DNA of 64,000 nt from Rikenellaceae bacterium (GTDB lineage Bacteria > Bacteroidota > Bacteroidia > Bacteroidales > Rikenellaceae): NCBI GenBank assembly GCA_015059925.1, contig SUZL01000005.1, positions 27,891 through 91,890 of the forward strand. The letters are read 5' to 3'. The notes beneath the pieces are model-generated. The model had not been told where the DNA came from and made no database searches. It saw nothing but the letters and a program-made list of their open reading frames with translations. How positions within the stretch are numbered: position 1 is the stretch's first letter; every line of letters starts with the position of its first letter. Below are positions 17,135-64,000 of this stretch, piece by piece. The translations under genes and the position numbers were made by a program.

Positions 17135-19174
17135 TTAATTTGCTATTGAAACTTTGATATTATCGAGATAAAGCCAAGCGTCACTATTACCCACGGTTCT
17201 TCCATGAGAATAAACATCCCACGCTAGACGATACGTATTATTAGGACAATTCTTAATAATATACGAAGTATATTGGCTAATATCATCATAACTACCACCT
17301 ACTATAGTTATGCCAGAAGTAATAGGATTGCTCAATGTAGTATTTCCATCAGGACTCTGAAGAGCTCCTCCTGTTTTCTTACCTCCTATAACACCTGAAG
17401 TACTATGATATCCCCAAGCAGCATAATGCGTATGTTTAGTGTCGTCATTTGCAAATGCCCAATTAAAAGAAACCATAACATTCACTGCGGATGAAATATT
17501 TTGAATTTTAGGAGAATCTAGTCTGCCTGCATAACGAGCAGTTCCCAATATTCCAGCCGCCTCTGTTCTAATATCAACTCGAATAGCTTTGCCTGCAGAT
17601 GCACCACATCTAGCGCCAGTCCACCCAGGAAGACCAGCGATAGATTCTAAGGAAGTGCCTGATACATCCGTAGAAAACGTGTCCCCATTAACATTATCGT
17701 TATAAGAAAATCCTTTGACATTACTAAAATCCTCATAAAACAAATATGGCACTACCATTTTTGCCTGATTCATTTTAGAAATCTGTAGAGGAGTATCCAA
17801 TACTTTAATTGTTGTGTCTTCAAACTTTGTATCAGTAGTTGACAACGGAATTGTACGATTTTGTATTGATGCGTGAGCTGATATATATGATATCCCTAAT
17901 GATGATGGATTACCTATTACTGTAACAGTAAACGTCTGAGGGCTATTATTATCTGGTGTAAGCGAAATAGAATTCGCAGATACTATATCAGTAGTAAATG
18001 GTTTTATAAATGTATAACCATCAGCAGAAAGTATAATATTAGATAGCTGCTCACCCAAGTTATTTTTTTCAACTATAAACTTCAAGCCAGCACCTTCTCC
18101 GTAAGGTGAAGAAGGAATTGTCAAATCCACAGGTGTAATTCGACCTGCAAAGAGAGTTTTATTAATTGATGCTGATTTAATTTCTGCCGCGGGAAGGCCT
18201 GCCGAATCATACACTTGGAACGAAATTTCTCCATTGAGTACTTCGGGCTTTATATGCACCCACACATATCGGCCATTCGCATTCAAGAGATTCTCGTCTG
18301 GCAAATCGATAGTAACCTTATTGCTTTGGCCACTCCACACGACCTCCCCGGTCTTAACATTAACCTTCGCCGTTCCGCCGACAACCGCCTGCGGGAACGT
18401 TATCTCCAGTCGTTTCACATCGCGTCCCAAAAGATTTCTTCTCTCGGGCACACGGATTCGCATCATATGGAGCAGGTGCTTCATTCTCAACTCGGGCTGA
18501 CGCCACACCTCAATACTTCCGCTACCATCGCGCTCGACAAGTGCCGCACCCGACACCTCGCCCCACATAATATCGTACGCAGGGTTGTACTCCCCGCTCT
18601 GATTAGCCGACAAAGTGTAAGTAACCTCTGTGCCATTGAGCGTAATTCCACTGACCGCGCTCTCTACCCCCTGCTTATTTCGGCTCTTGGGAGAGGGATA
18701 GATAGCGTAATAAGTGTAGTCATAATCGCGATCCATCGTATTGGCCACCGTCGCTGTGAAATCCGCCGAATGATAGTCGTGATTAAAATGCGCCAACGAG
18801 AAAACCGTCTGCGCAAAAGTCCATTCCTGCGGACTAACAGCTGGCTCAGCCCACACCATAATCTGATCGGCAACTTCTTTTCCCTCCTTCTCATCATAAT
18901 AACAAGACCAAAAGATAGGTTGTTCGGTGTCTGTGGCAGGCCCCAATTCGGTACGCGTTGAATTATCCGCTGCAGGCGCAAGCTCCGCTCCGACCTCGAT
19001 CACATCATCCACATTCTCCATCGCGCGCGTAGCACCACCCTGCGAAGCACGAATCACAAGCTCAACAGGCTGCTGCACGGCACTCTCGCCCTCACTCTTC
19101 TCGAGGCTACACCCCATAAGGAAGATTGACGCAAAAATCAAAAGTATGTAATTTCTTATATGCACTTTTTTCAC
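17135..19174 (-). CDS. Fimbrillin (Mfa/Fim-like) family lipoprotein with variable C-terminal domain
   Basis: Lipobox LMGC, TRA/TRT motifs, YYAIYP, Q.G.YNP.YDIMWG and MKHLLHMMRI typical of fimbrillin-like proteins; ends WLYLDNIKVSIAN. Confidence 0.7.
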   Translation of the reverse strand: MKKVHIRNYILLIFASIFLMGCSLEKSEGESAVQQPVELVIRASQGGATRAMENVDDVIEVGAELAPAADNSTRTELGPATDTEQPIFWSCYYDEKEGKEVADQIMVWAEPAVSPQEWTFAQTVFSLAHFNHDYHSADFTATVANTMDRDYDYTYYAIYPSPKSRNKQGVESAVSGITLNGTEVTYTLSANQSGEYNPAYDIMWGEVSGAALVERDGSGSIEVWRQPELRMKHLLHMMRIRVPERRNLLGRDVKRLEITFPQAVVGGTAKVNVKTGEVVWSGQSNKVTIDLPDENLLNANGRYVWVHIKPEVLNGEISFQVYDSAGLPAAEIKSASINKTLFAGRITPVDLTIPSSPYGEGAGLKFIVEKNNLGEQLSNIILSADGYTFIKPFTTDIVSANSISLTPDNNSPQTFTVTVIGNPSSLGISYISAHASIQNRTIPLSTTDTKFEDTTIKVLDTPLQISKMNQAKMVVPYLFYEDFSNVKGFSYNDNVNGDTFSTDVSGTSLESIAGLPGWTGARCGASAGKAIRVDIRTEAAGILGTARYAGRLDSPKIQNISSAVNVMVSFNWAFANDDTKHTHYAAWGYHSTSGVIGGKKTGGALQSPDGNTTLSNPITSGITIVGGSYDDISQYTSYIIKNCPNNTYRLAWDVYSHGRTVGNSDAWLYLDNIKVSIAN

Positions 19175-59641: not shown

Positions 59642-60613
59642 ATGGACAAAATTACAATCTATCAATTCACCGATCCCGTCTGCGTATGGTGCTGGGGTAA
59701 TGAGCCCGTGATGAGGGCTATAGACTACCTCTACGGCAACAACGTCGGCATAGAGTTCATAATGGGAGGGCTGGTGGAGGAGATCTCGACACTCTACGAT
59801 CTGCAAGGGCCAAAGAGCGCGGTAATCGAGCGCGCCAATAAGATTATGGCCGAGAATTGGCTCAAAGCTTCCGAGCGGCACGGGATGCCCGTCAGGGTGG
59901 ATCGGATGGCGTTATTCAGTGAGCGCTACCCCTCATCGTTTCCGCAGAACATAGCATACGAAGCGTCACGGCGCATCGATCCCGAGAAGGCGAAGGTGCT
60001 GCTTAGGCGCATACGCGAGGCAACGTTCACCGAGCAGAGGCGCACATCGCAGATGGATGTGCTCATCGAGTTGGCCGTAGAGTGCGGGCTGGATGCGGCG
60101 GAGTTCATCGACGAATACACCGCAGGCGGAGCGCAGAGCGACTTTATGCAGTCGCGGATGCGATGTCGGCGCAACGGGGTTACGGGGTTTCCGTCATATA
60201 TGATTCGCAACGAGAATACGAAAATCACGCTCGGCGGCTACCAGAACCTATCGACCTTCCACACCACCATCGCCCGCCTCTCGCAGGGGCGCATAAAGCC
60301 GCGTCGCGTAGGGCCGTCGTTGGCGTCGATTACGGAGTTTATCAAGCGCTACGGGACGGTCTATCCCGTTGAGATTGAGGTGGCATTTGCGCTGGATCGC
60401 AACAAGACCGATTTGATGATCGCGGAGCTGGTGCGCTCGGGAAAGATTGCTGCAGCGACGATTGGCAACGGTCAGCGACTCTCGTTCGTCGGCAGGCGCG
60501 AGGGCGTGCGGCAGGTGCGCAGGCAACGCTCAGCGCAGCAGGTGGAGGGCAAGCCTCAACCGATGGCGGAGAAGAGCGGACAACGGACCAAGAGGGAGAA
60601 AATCGGAAGTTAG
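59642..60613 (+). CDS. DsbA-like thioredoxin-fold protein with C-terminal winged-helix-like domain (YjbH/SpxH-like)
   Basis: FTDPVCVWCW, GVTGFPS; no signal peptide; extra C-terminal domain. Confidence 0.75.
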   Translation: MDKITIYQFTDPVCVWCWGNEPVMRAIDYLYGNNVGIEFIMGGLVEEISTLYDLQGPKSAVIERANKIMAENWLKASERHGMPVRVDRMALFSERYPSSFPQNIAYEASRRIDPEKAKVLLRRIREATFTEQRRTSQMDVLIELAVECGLDAAEFIDEYTAGGAQSDFMQSRMRCRRNGVTGFPSYMIRNENTKITLGGYQNLSTFHTTIARLSQGRIKPRRVGPSLASITEFIKRYGTVYPVEIEVAFALDRNKTDLMIAELVRSGKIAAATIGNGQRLSFVGRREGVRQVRRQRSAQQVEGKPQPMAEKSGQRTKREKIGS

Positions 60614-60659
60614 GTCGTAGCCTACGGCCTAACAAAAACGCATATCGATGCAAAATTGT

Positions 60660-60689
60660 AAGCCGCCTACGTTATGGGGTGGCTTTTTT
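60660..60689 (+). terminator. Intrinsic terminator after the DsbA-like gene
   Basis: AAGCCGCC..GGTGGCTT stem followed by a T-run. Confidence 0.7.
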
Positions 60690-60831
60690 AGGGTATATAA
60701 TATGGTATGGCTTACACTTTGTTATTCATAAATATGCAGCAACATTCATTACAACAGCGATATAAATCAGCCATTTAGACAGTTCAACAGGAATTACGGA
60801 GTGATTTATATGCAGAAAAGTATGGAATTTT

Positions 60832-60863
60832 CTTGTTTTTAATAATTTTTACTATTATTTTTG
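60832..60863 (+). promoter_or_regulatory. Sigma-A promoter of the ilv leader
   Basis: CTTG-N20-TATTTTTG, 22 bp upstream of the leader ATG. Confidence 0.65.
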
Positions 60864-60885
60864 CAACATAAACGAAAAGAACTTT

Positions 60886-60942
60886 ATGTACGCTGGTTTG
60901 TATATTCTGATTAACCTAATCCTCGTGGTCTTGCGCAGATAA
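60886..60942 (+). CDS. ilv operon leader peptide (18 aa)
   Basis: Hand translation MYAGLYILINLILVVLRR*; 10 of 18 residues are Ile/Leu/Val. Confidence 0.85.
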   Translation: MYAGLYILINLILVVLRR

Positions 60943-61016
60943 CGGGAGAAAGGTTGTATGTATATACTTATACCATTGATATACGAGCCTTTCTCCTATC
61001 GGAGAGAGGCTTTTTT
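60921..61016 (+). promoter_or_regulatory. Transcription attenuator (antiterminator/terminator) of ilvD-ilvB
   Basis: GGAGAAAGG (60945-60953) is complementary to CCTTTCTCC (60988-60996), which is also the 5' arm of the terminator AGCCTTTCTCC-TATC-GGAGAGAGGCT-TTTTT. Confidence 0.85.
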
Positions 61017-61036
61017 AACTACTAAAACAGAGTAGA

Positions 61037-62857
61037 ATGAAACATCAGTTACGAAGTGCCATCACGACCGTAGGCCGCCGAATGGCAGGAGCCAGAAGCC
61101 TGTGGAGGGCTAACGGAATGAAAAAAGAGCAGATGGGACAGCCCGTGATCGGAATCGCCAATTCGTTCACGCAGATGGTGCCCGGACACGTTCATCTGCA
61201 CCAGATAGGACAATACGTCAAGAGCCTGATCGAGGCCGAAGGTTGCTTTGCCGCAGAGTTCAACACCATAGCAATCGACGACGGAATCGCAATGGGCCAC
61301 GACGGTATGTTGTACTCGCTGCCCTCGCGCGATATTATCGCCGACTCGGTGGAGTATATGGCAAACGCACACAAGGTCGATGCGCTGGTCTGCATCAGCA
61401 ACTGCGACAAGATTACGCCGGGAATGTTGATGGCAGCGATGCGACTGAACATTCCCACCGTATTTGTATCGGGAGGTCCGATGGAGGCGGGATTGTTCCG
61501 CGGACGCGGGGCCGACCTGATTGATGCAATGGTGTTGAGTGCTGACGACAAGTGTACGGACGAGGAGGCTGACGAGATTGAGGCTTCGGCTTGTCCGGGA
61601 TGCGGATCGTGCTCGGGAATGTTTACGGCAAACTCGATGAACTGTCTGAATGAGGCTATCGGCTTGGCACTGCCCGGCAACGGCACGATCGTGGCGACAC
61701 ACCGAAATCGCAAGGCACTCTTCGAGAAGGCGGCGAAGCTGATTGTCGAGAATGCACGCCGATACTACTTCGAGGGAGATGAGTCGGTGCTACCGCGCTC
61801 GATCGCTACGAAGGCGGCATTTGAGAATGCAATGTCGCTCGATATTGCGATGGGAGGCTCGACAAATACGGTGCTGCACCTGCTGGCGGTAGCACACGAG
61901 GCGGGAGTGGATTTCACGATGGCCGATATTGACCGCCTCTCGCGCAAGATTCCCGTGCTGTGCAAGGTTGCGCCCAACGGACACTACCACGTTCAGGATG
62001 TGAACCGCGCAGGCGGTATTATGGGAATTATGGGCGAATTGGCGAAGAATGGTCTTATCGACACTACGGCGAAGCGTGTGGATTTCTCTTCGCTCGAGGA
62101 GGCACTTGACAAATACTATTACGGATCGGAGAATTTCTCGCAGGAGGCTCGCAAGATATATCTGAGTGCCCCCGCAAACCGTTACAGCCGCGAGATGGCG
62201 TCGCAGGAGTGCTACTACGAGGCGATGGACGAGGATCACGCATCGGGTTGCATACGCGATATGGAGAACGCATACTTCCGCGACGGAGGTCTGGCCGTGC
62301 TGACGGGAAACATCGCACGCAAGGGTTGCATCGTAAAGACGGCCGGCGTAGCCGAGGAGCTGATGCAGTTCAGCGGTCGGGCGAAGGTGTTTGAGTCGCA
62401 GGAGCAGGCGATGAACGGCATACTCGGCGGCGAGGTGGAGGCTGGCGATGTGGTGGTGATTCGCTACGAGGGCCCGAAGGGTGGCCCGGGTATGCAGGAG
62501 ATGCTCTACCCCACTTCGTACCTCAAGTCGAAGCATTTGGACAAGGCGTGTGCGCTGATTACCGACGGCCGCTTCTCGGGCGGAACATCGGGTCTGTCGA
62601 TTGGGCACGTCTCGCCTGAGGCTGCTTCGGGTGGCGAGATTGGTATCATAAGAAATGGAGATTGGATTGATATTGACATTGCGGCCCGTTCGATCAATCT
62701 GCGCATTACGGAGAAGGAGATGGCAGAGCGTATGGCCGCGTGGAGCGTTCGCAAGCCCGTAGGCCGCGATCGCGTGGTGCCGCAGTCGCTCAGGGCATAT
62801 TCGCTGCTGGTGTCGTCGGCCGATCAGGGTGCCGTAAGAATCGTTCCCGAGGAGTAA
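61037..62857 (+). CDS. ilvD: Dihydroxy-acid dehydratase
   Basis: [51 protein letters not shown]. Confidence 0.98.
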
Positions 62858-62883: not shown

Positions 62884-64000
62884 ATGGCTTTTTCAGGTTT
62901 TTCAGATAATACCCCCGTTACCCCTAAAAAGGATTTGCCCTGCATCAGCGGCTCGGAGGCGGTGATCCGCTCATTTATGGCCGAGGGTGTGGAGACAATT
63001 TTCGGATATCCGGGCGGAGCGATAATACCCGTCTATGATGCGTTATACGACTATCGTGATCGGCTGAACCACATATTGGTTCGCCACGAGCAGTGCGCCA
63101 TTCACGCTGCGCAGGGTTATGCCCGCGCCACGGGACGTACGGGAGTCTGCATCGTAACATCGGGCCCGGGTGCGACGAACACCGTGACGGGATTGGCCGA
63201 TGCGATGCTCGACTCGACACCCATCGTGCTCATAAGCGGACAGGTGGCATCATCGACACTCGGAACGGATGCCTTTCAGGAGATCAACTTCATCGAGATC
63301 ACAAACTCGGTAACGAAGTGGAATTGTCAAGTAAAGCGCGCCGAGGATATTCCGGAGGCTATTGCCCGCGCATTCTACATCGCTTCGTCGGGCCGTCCGG
63401 GCCCCGTAGTGGTCGATATTACGAAGGATGCGCAGAACGGATTGGTGGATTTCGAGTATAAGCCGATGAAGTTTATCCGCAGCTATCAGCCCTACGCCGA
63501 GATTGACAACGACCAGATATTGGAGGCGGCACGCCTCGTAAACCTCTCGCGCAAGCCGATGGCGCTCATCGGACAGGGCGTGATCTTGGGCGGTGCGGAG
63601 CAGGAGCTGAAAGAGTTTCTCGAAAAGAGCGGAATACCCGCAGCTTCGACTCTGCTCGGATTGTCGGCACTGCCGACCGACCATCCGCAGTATGTGGGAA
63701 TGCTCGGTATGCACGGCAACTACGCCCCCAACATCAAGAACCGCGACTGCGATCTGCTCATCGCCATAGGAATGCGTTTCGACGACCGCGTAACGGGCGA
63801 TCCCTCGAAGTTCGGTATCAACGCCAAGATTATACATATGGAGATTGATCCTGCCGAGGTGAATAAACTGGTCTATGCCGATGTGGCTGTGGTGGGCGAT
63901 GTGAAGCAGACGCTGCCACTGCTGACCGAGAAGATAGCGAAAAACGATCACTCGGCGTGGATCGACGAGTTCCGCGTATGCGCCAACATCGAGCGCGAGG
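62884..64000 (+). CDS. ilvB: Acetolactate synthase large subunit (3' end outside the window)
   Basis: Hand translation MAFSGF..GSEAVIRS..IFGYPGGAIIPVYD..VRHEQ..TSGPGATN..GMLGMHG..GMRFDDRVTG. Confidence 0.96.
   Translation, partial: MAFSGFSDNTPVTPKKDLPCISGSEAVIRSFMAEGVETIFGYPGGAIIPVYDALYDYRDRLNHILVRHEQCAIHAAQGYARATGRTGVCIVTSGPGATNTVTGLADAMLDSTPIVLISGQVASSTLGTDAFQEINFIEITNSVTKWNCQVKRAEDIPEAIARAFYIASSGRPGPVVVDITKDAQNGLVDFEYKPMKFIRSYQPYAEIDNDQILEAARLVNLSRKPMALIGQGVILGGAEQELKEFLEKSGIPAASTLLGLSALPTDHPQYVGMLGMHGNYAPNIKNRDCDLLIAIGMRFDDRVTGDPSKFGINAKIIHMEIDPAEVNKLVYADVAVVGDVKQTLPLLTEKIAKNDHSAWIDEFRVCANIERE

Follow-up and report, generated by a model that had tools for sequence, protein, structure and literature searches.

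Organization of the region upstream of ilvD

The dihydroxy-acid dehydratase gene ilvD lies close to the end of a stretch of 64,000 nucleotides (nt) from a Rikenellaceae bacterium (contig SUZL01000005.1, positions 27,891 to 91,890), which is referred to here as the window. Immediately 5' of this gene we delineated a candidate attenuator that combines a promoter box, a short open reading frame (ORF) dominated by isoleucine, leucine and valine (ILV) codons, and three RNA segments with the capacity to form two mutually exclusive helices (Table 1). An original prediction, made from the sequence of the window, had described a promoter, an 18-codon leader, two antiterminator arms and a terminator at this place, with ilvD and ilvB downstream; our reading of 60600-61200 located every one of these features at the positions given there, and both genes matched the expected protein families. 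The nearest IlvD proteins, with 91% amino-acid identity, come from metagenome-assembled genomes (MAGs) of Alistipes in a set of GTDB contigs with one genome per species, and the operon of the closest relative has the order ilvD-ilvB-ilvN-ilvC. The DNA runs that contain the window sequence carry labels of feces and gut metagenomes, with bovine and sheep gut among them.

Table 1. Coordinates of the leader element and of the genes that follow it, in positions of the window
Feature	Position	Strand	Basis
-7 promoter box TATTTTTG, Bacteroidetes-type TAnnTTTG	60856-60863	+	Read from sequence
Leader ORF, 18 codons plus TAA, peptide MYAGLYILINLILVVLRR	60886-60942 (ATG 60886; TAA 60940-60942)	+	Read from sequence
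Control codons, 10 Ile/Leu/Val among 12 (L5 to L16)	60898-60933	+	Sequence and family comparison
Segment 1, leader-coding RNA, weak pairing with 60937-60955 in naked RNA	60912-60931	+	Pairs in the minimum free energy fold
Segment 2, antiterminator 5' arm GGGAGAAAGGUUGUAUGU	60944-60961	+	Folding with segment 3; covariation
Segment 3, shared arm, pairs with segment 2 or, via 60985-60996, with segment 4	60979-60997	+	Folding; covariation
Segment 4, terminator 3' arm (61001-61012) and T-run (61011-61016)	61001-61016	+	Terminator scan; covariation
ilvD, dihydroxy-acid dehydratase, first gene after the leader	61037-62857	+	NF009103, 1007 bits
ilvB, acetolactate synthase large subunit, continues past the window end	62884-64000	+	TIGR00118

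Ten of the 17 codons that follow the initiator methionine of the leader specify ILV (3 Ile, 5 Leu and 2 Val), with leucine being spelled by four different codons that include the rare CTA. These are followed by two Arg codons and the UAA stop, such that the last ILV codon is placed 13 nt 5' of segment 2, which itself begins 1 nt past the stop. Among all 552 short ATG-initiated ORFs on both strands of the window, a density of 10 ILV residues in 12 is reached by the leader and by one other ORF. The latter, at 17286 on the minus strand, is contained within a 679-residue ORF and lacks the three-segment motif, and was hence rejected as an attenuator. The motif itself occurs just once in the 64 kb. 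Transcription probably starts at about 60869-60872, which would leave in front of the leader a 5' untranslated region (UTR) about 15 nt long, rich in A and devoid of a Shine-Dalgarno (SD) sequence.

The arms of the antiterminator are GGAGAAAGGTTGTAT (60945-60959) and ATACGAGCCTTTCTCC (60981-60996). The terminator consists of a 12-bp stem (60985-61012) with 6 GC pairs and a 4-nt loop, followed by a run of six T at 61011-61016, and it is the single terminator-like site that a consensus scan detected in 60400-61300. It ends 20 nt before the ATG of ilvD and leaves the ilvD AUG uncovered.

A family of ILV-rich leaders in Bacteroidales

The original prediction had suggested a search for orthologous leaders in Bacteroidales, and a comparison of the 320-330 nt 5' of ilvD from 80 loci recovered them across the order. 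A short ILV-rich ORF located about 150-190 nt 5' of ilvD recurs in several Bacteroidales groups, and its peptide falls into recognizable types: M..SLYIIISLILVVLRR in Alistipes, ..NVINLLLVV.. in a second group of Alistipes, and MNLHTSINLAVLHIIRVVVVASRA in Bacteroides and Mediterranea. ILV-rich leaders were also observed in Odoribacter, Tannerellaceae, Muribaculaceae, Paludibacteraceae and several unnamed Bacteroidales. No ILV leader ORF was found in the non-Bacteroidota loci, nor in most Prevotellaceae loci, of this set of 80. Within Alistipes the sequence hardly changes from the second half of the leader to the end of segment 2, nor in the two arms of the terminator; variability is seen in the promoter region, in the loop that joins segments 2 and 3 and in the spacer that leads to ilvD.

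By anchoring on three complementary cores we assembled a family of 43 elements from 41 genome loci and the window, which spans at least six Bacteroidales families, including Rikenellaceae, Odoribacteraceae, Bacteroidaceae, Tannerellaceae and Muribaculaceae. In its consensus, segment 2, (G)GAGAAAGG, is rich in purines and is placed at the leader stop or across it, segment 3, GCCUUUCUC, is rich in pyrimidines, and segment 4 has the form GAGAAAGGC. The loop connecting segments 2 and 3 varies in sequence and ranges from 13 to 40 nt across the family. In most copies the GC-rich stem is of canonical form and 5-8 U come after it.

Certain loci show distinctive architectures. An uncultured Odoribacter MAG carries two tandem ILV attenuators 5' of ilvD (L010:2650-3000), with the leaders MKNLSLHLSNILLVVLCHGIEKGV and MNLQNLHMIVIGMLLVVLLRQ, each unit being endowed with its own leader, antiterminator and terminator. 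In Odoribacter laneus YIT 12061 (L015:2820-2970) the leader ORF extends through segment 2, its stop lying at +24 nt (MTNLSLHLINILMLVVLCHDVRKVYLME); in this case a translating ribosome, and not just a terminating one, would mask the antiterminator. Two loci from Prevotellaceae/Bacteroidaceae MAGs (L064 and L070) have no ILV leader, and share a conserved region about 110 nt 5' of ilvD, TTTTAC(A/T)CCTTT(T/C)CCAT...GGGAGAGGCATT...GTGTAAAAAGATT. Three further loci without an ILV leader (L052, L054 and L056) have GAATATATATACAGAAAA(T/G)(T/A)TTGAAT in common just before the ATG. Both of these 5' regions may represent other regulatory leaders.

Coding signature of the leader ORF

An ATG-initiated ORF of 16-29 codons is present in all 43 elements, and its stop begins at -10 to +24 nt relative to the first position of segment 2. 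The stop adjoins segment 2 with a gap of 1 nt in Alistipes and lies inside it in Bacteroides. In the last 15 codons, ILV account for 385 of 645 codons (60%) in frame, as against 115 and 94 of 645 (18% and 15%) when the same stretch is read out of frame, and the enrichment that had been predicted is accordingly a conserved and frame-specific property of the family. A further 70 copies obtained from a pattern scan of metagenomes gave 51% in frame against 18% and 14%. All three of Ile, Leu and Val are present in 42 of the 43 leaders. The peptide sequence drifts between families; what is kept is the richness in ILV, the frame and the position of the stop relative to segment 2.

A makes up 46% of the 20 nt that precede the leader AUGs, and SD-like cores occur in 2 of the 43 elements. 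This is consistent with the initiation of translation in Bacteroidetes, which proceeds without SD sequences (PMC6847099). In 31 of 38 loci a TAnnTTTG box is present in the 70 nt 5' of the leader AUG, where the expected number is 0.01 per 70 nt.

One alternative is that the short ORF arose by chance, or specifies a hydrophobic micro-protein with a function of its own, and that the hairpins belong to an ordinary structured 5' UTR or terminator unrelated to the sensing of amino acids. The peptide is indeed hydrophobic and comparable in length to small membrane peptides, and when four related leader peptides were compared with a collection of 15 billion proteins one of them was present, named 'hypothetical protein'. 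The residue profile is specific to ILV, however: these make up 52% of the leader residues, F, M, W, A, G and C together 11%, and the polar residues N, S, H and T, which interrupt the hydrophobic run, 24%. This profile favors control codons over a membrane peptide. The drift of the sequence with retention of ILV richness, frame and stop position, the occurrence of the element solely 5' of ilvD and the covariation of two mutually exclusive helices (see below) all speak against this alternative, which we consider very improbable.

An additional conserved feature is seen at 60922-60930 of the window and at the same position in most related loci, where Leu-Val-Val or Val-Val-Val is spelled (C/G)TCGTGGT(C/G) in most families. 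This conservation of nucleotides near the end of the leader exceeds what ILV coding needs.

Covariation of the two helices

In the anchored alignment (A2), helix 2:3 is 89.3% paired, a value that is inflated for seven of its pairs by the choice of the segment 2 register via complementarity of a 7-nt core, and 7 of its 12 pairs, along with 35 cells, are changed on both sides. None of 500 shuffles reached the observed values for cells paired, cells with double changes or covariation score, and two measures that count pairs or pair types were reached by 12 and 19 of the 500. Sliding the register reduced pairing to 48-62%. Two lines of support are independent of the anchoring on the core. The first is provided by the flanking pairs, for example columns 5/37, which are GC in 19 sequences and UA in 15. 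The second is an RNAalifold prediction from a plain, unanchored MAFFT alignment of sequences ending before segment 4, which recovered helix 2:3 with 5 of 9 pairs compensated. One sequence (L041) was placed one column off by MAFFT in A2 and was left as is; its pairs are mostly counted as unpaired, which lowers the support.

In helix 3:4 pairing amounts to 92.5%, compensation is seen in 9 of 13 pairs and 44 cells are changed on both sides; again none of 500 shuffles reached the values for cells paired, cells with double changes or covariation score. Lineages that alter segment 3 alter both of its partners. Thus, segment 3 reads CUCC in Alistipes with GGAG in both segments 2 and 4, CUCAC in Bacteroides with GUGAG in both (the UGA within segment 2 being the leader stop), and CCUCCC in Muribaculaceae with GGGAGG in both. 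In L066 and L068 segment 3 is CCAUUCUC, facing GAGAGUGG in segment 2 and GAGGAUGG in segment 4, and L071 and L075 display compensating variants such as GAGGAUGG, GAGGGUGG and AGAGUGG.

Folding of the leader RNA and a proposed mechanism

The RNA from 60870 to 61036 folds with -49.9 kcal/mol (z = -4.6), and none of 200 shuffles was as stable. In its minimum free energy (MFE) structure the leader ORF is paired with 60937-60983 and the terminator is formed. Taken alone, the antiterminator (60944-60961 with 60979-60997) has -21.7 kcal/mol and the terminator -20.2 kcal/mol; both use 60985-60996, and the two states are therefore mutually exclusive, as had been proposed.

We conclude that the element is very probably a ribosome-mediated leader-peptide transcription attenuator, which senses charged tRNA-Ile, tRNA-Leu and tRNA-Val together and controls the ilvD-ilvB-ilvN-ilvC operon of an Alistipes (Rikenellaceae) genome. 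The frame-specificity of the ILV codons, the orthologues, the covariation, the position of the stop and the promoter box in 31 of 38 loci support this reading, which the original prediction had also arrived at. For its operation we infer leader translation, ribosome stalling, a particular footprint geometry, coupling of translation to transcription and a kinetic competition between the hairpins. Transcription would begin about 15 nt 5' of the leader AUG from the TAnnTTTG promoter, and a ribosome would load on the A-rich, SD-less 5' end to translate the 18 codons. When Ile, Leu and Val are plentiful, it would reach the Arg-Arg-UAA end, where its footprint, assumed to extend about 12-15 nt downstream, would cover the first 8-12 nt of segment 2, most of its core. 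With segment 2 masked, segment 3 would pair with segment 4, and the resulting GC-rich hairpin and U-run would terminate transcription 20 nt before ilvD. If any one of the three amino acids were short, the ribosome would stall within about codons 5-16 and leave segment 2 exposed; this segment could then capture segment 3 as it is made, no terminator would form and the polymerase would read into ilvD.

Several observations weigh against this interpretation. Even with segment 2 free, the terminator state remains the thermodynamic minimum (-23.7 vs -21.7 kcal/mol), and read-through must therefore be kinetic, as is also the case in E. coli trp and other classical attenuators. The leader AUG of the window has T rather than A at position -3. 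In seven close Alistipes relatives (L002 and L004-L009) no TAnnTTTG was found within 70 nt of the leader ATG, which implies a promoter farther upstream or of another type; in these loci the leader and hairpins are nearly identical to those of the window despite the missing box. The pairing percentage of helix 2:3 carries the inflation noted above. The Logan contigs of the window sequence, at depth 3-9, hold no 5' or 3' end information, and leader translation, a 3' end at about 61016 and a response to branched-chain amino acids are predictions. Finally, three Muribaculaceae copies (L033, L038 and L062) and one from an Alistipes MAG (L019) keep the three segments, 70-130 nt 5' of ilvD, without a clear U-run.

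These last copies bear on a further alternative, namely that translation of the leader acts through Rho-dependent polarity, mRNA stability or the translation of ilvD in place of intrinsic termination. In the Muribaculaceae copies and L019 the terminator may be atypical or the output something else, and intrinsic termination might then not be the universal output of the family. Against this, the window and most other copies have the GC-rich stem followed by 5-8 U, and the hairpin stops short of the ilvD AUG. For the element as a whole we regard such an output as improbable.

Is a 1:2 hairpin part of the switch?

Classical attenuators such as those of E. coli trp and ilvGMEDA are four-segment devices, in which a 1:2 hairpin serves both as a pause site and as an anti-antiterminator, so that an untranslated leader terminates (super-attenuation). 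The original prediction had described a 1:2 hairpin in the window as weak, and this characterization holds: the hairpin is present in the MFE structure, and the energy of the 1:2 duplex across the 43 elements is no better than that of shuffles (mean z -0.08, with 1 of 43 below -2). A four-segment arrangement is compatible with the MFE structure of the window, in which the whole leader ORF is engaged with 60937-60983, and with the pairing probability of segment 2 with upstream RNA across the family, which is modestly higher than in shuffles (mean 0.75 vs about 0.6). The block CTCGTGGTCTTGCGCAGATAACGGGAG is also nearly invariant in Alistipes, but this invariance is explained as well by coding and by segment 2 itself. 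Moreover, the partner sequence and the register of segment 2 change from one lineage to another. In light of this, and of the shuffle-level duplex energy, we consider the four-segment form rather unlikely.

A three-segment variant is favored, because the 1:2 pairing is weak and lacks clear conservation across the family; here the ribosome itself would mask the antiterminator. In such a switch an untranslated leader would be expected to read through instead of being super-attenuated. Tentatively, and as a proposal somewhat short of even odds, we suggest that a single sequence-conserved family of ILV attenuators extends across Bacteroidia and Flavobacteriia, built as a three-segment switch in which the terminating ribosome, at a stop that adjoins the antiterminator or falls within it, would act as the anti-antiterminator, no 1:2 hairpin would be needed and untranslated RNA would read through.

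Genomic specificity and transcript evidence

In the 80 genome loci the three-segment pattern is seen exclusively 5' of ilvD, once or twice per locus. An exact-pattern scan of metagenome contigs gave another 80 loci, 72 of which have an IlvD coding sequence downstream, amounting to 72 of the 72 that were usable; in most of these the coding start lies 20-60 nt after the motif. The remaining eight comprise four that are too short to judge and four unrelated repeat arrays (L088, L111, L121 and L133). The latter consist of purine/pyrimidine repeats without a leader and without ilvD, and were set aside as chance matches. One of them (L111:1700-1950, in Ga0209172_10001474) is made of tandem repeats of about 120 nt rich in GGGGAGAAAGG / CCCCTTTCTCC, which gave matches to the pattern in both orientations; the array has no relation to ilv and lies in a cyanobacterial-looking context.

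RNA of the window species is represented among the Logan contigs. Some of these extend from the leader into ilvD, and one covers the intergenic region upstream; the leader-to-ilvD contigs fit read-through RNA and also contaminating DNA. For a Bacteroides relative (L102), a metatranscriptome contig of 6.3 kb and depth 27 covers the leader and ilvD, with an upstream contig at depth 2, which is weakly suggestive of co-transcription of leader and gene; in RNA contigs of the isolate ilvD is covered and the leader is not.

On the 5' side of the element, an ORF of 323 residues (59642-60613) is followed, 47 nt past its stop, by a hairpin at 60660-60689 (+), AAGCCGCC..(10-nt loop)..GGTGGCTT, and a run of six T. 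This hairpin was recognized by eye, as the consensus terminator scan skips loops of more than 8 nt. It is a likely terminator, and would insulate the ilv leader from upstream transcription. Since the upstream gene appears to have its own hairpin and T-run, the ilv leader seems to begin an independent transcription unit.

Relationship to known attenuators

A scan of the whole window against Rfam 15 at gathering thresholds gave no matches, and a permissive scan of 60800-61100 gave matches at chance level, with the PyrR binding site as the best (23 bits against a gathering score of 54, E = 0.38); membership in a known Rfam family was therefore rejected. Likewise, six related leaders of 22-29 residues had no match among the NCBIfam leader-peptide families at E-values up to 10. 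The weak PyrR match, together with the unusual conservation of the purine-rich segments 2 and 4 across the order, could be taken to mean that a trans-acting factor or ligand makes the decision, through a T-box-like interaction with tRNA, a riboswitch or a protein of the PyrR or TRAP type, with the ORF being incidental. No Rfam family reaches its gathering score, however, the loop between segments 2 and 3 is too variable in length and sequence for a conserved pocket or specifier, and the frame-specific ILV enrichment and fixed stop position would be left unexplained. We accordingly assign this possibility a very low likelihood, comparable to that of the micro-protein.

The element differs in its sequence from the enterobacterial attenuators of ilvGMEDA (ilvL), ilvBN (ivbL) and leu (leuL), which are governed by leader peptides with mixed Ile/Leu/Val codons. 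In both cases a short multivalent leader is combined with an exclusive antiterminator/terminator pair just 5' of the first biosynthetic gene, and the logic of ilvGMEDA attenuation that was invoked for the window thus applies, without any sequence or Rfam relationship. The window leader is SD-less and has 18 codons as opposed to about 32. Furthermore, its stop abuts the antiterminator, the 1:2 pause hairpin lacks clear conservation and the gene order is ilvD-B-N-C. Outside Proteobacteria, the three-hairpin attenuator of Corynebacterium glutamicum ilvBNC (PMC11857589) is another ilv leader-peptide attenuator, whose set of hairpins is debated; it differs from the present element in its phylum, SD-dependent translation and unrelated sequence.

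Attenuation has precedents within the phylum itself. Reportedly, a list of taxa with candidate attenuators that Vitreschak and coworkers gave in 2004 included Bacteroidetes/Chlorobi. The Bacteroid-trp motif (RF01692) was described in Bacteroidetes by Weinberg et al. 2010 (PMC2864571). Like the ilvD leader, it is a leader-type cis element of an amino-acid operon predicted by comparative genomics, but it has Trp codons, lies 5' of the trp operon, is a different RNA and has no match in the window. In B. thetaiotaomicron, Ryan et al. 2020 remarked that long 5' UTRs contain short ORFs 'reminiscent of leader peptides' (PMC7366714), and Guerin et al. 2021 predicted leader-peptide attenuation before the ilvE, trpE, pheA and hisG operons of Flavobacterium psychrophilum (PMC9723704), the 'leader peptide attenuation element' of ilvE being supported by a transcriptome map (Table S7 and SI D9 therein). 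The original prediction, which knew of little experimental evidence for such control in this phylum, consequently overstated the novelty, given that RF01692 and the ilvE, trp, phe and his leaders of F. psychrophilum had been predicted earlier. For the ilvD leader of Bacteroidales in particular, no paper was found in the literature searched, and the supplements of a B. thetaiotaomicron transcriptome paper contain no ilvD entry.

The closest parallel is the ilvE leader of F. psychrophilum. We folded its printed sequence of 437 nt and observed three tandem attenuator units, of which units 2 and 3 encode MTTNTIIIISIIIRSFE; the published account lists only the first leader, of 25 residues (PMC9723704). 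Apart from the phylum, the pathway, the short Ile-rich leader and the absence of an SD sequence, the similarity extends to details. In units 2 and 3 the leader stop UGA lies inside segment 2, as in the Bacteroides copies, and the terminator AAGCCUUUCUCA...UGAGAAAGGCUU with its U-run has the same arms as these copies. The differences are that the first gene is ilvE and not ilvD, that there are three tandem units, and that the leaders of units 2 and 3 carry Ile without Leu or Val and that of unit 1 mainly Ile, whereas the Bacteroidales leaders carry all three. Both attenuators are predictions. Because the stop inside segment 2 and the terminator arms are shared, the family is probably phylum-wide.

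Biological implications

The element is real and is unannotated in the databases searched, and it represents a well-known kind of regulator that had been predicted earlier in the phylum; our understanding of attenuation itself is unchanged by it. Of note to specialists are the unusual degree to which the three segments keep their sequence throughout the order, and probably the phylum, the embedding of the stop in the antiterminator and the lack of a clearly conserved 1:2 hairpin.

How gut Bacteroidales regulate the synthesis of branched-chain amino acids is poorly charted, and an easily recognized conserved attenuator supplies a rule by which the ilvD-B-N-C operon can be annotated throughout the order. 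The element is also a potential compact ILV-responsive part for Bacteroides genetics. It further offers a natural test case for how SD-independent ribosomes load on a 5' UTR of about 15 nt with sufficient speed to remain coupled to RNA polymerase. If the tentative three-segment family of Bacteroidia and Flavobacteriia proves true, it would constitute a natural in vivo reporter of SD-free initiation and of transcription-translation coupling in Bacteroidota.

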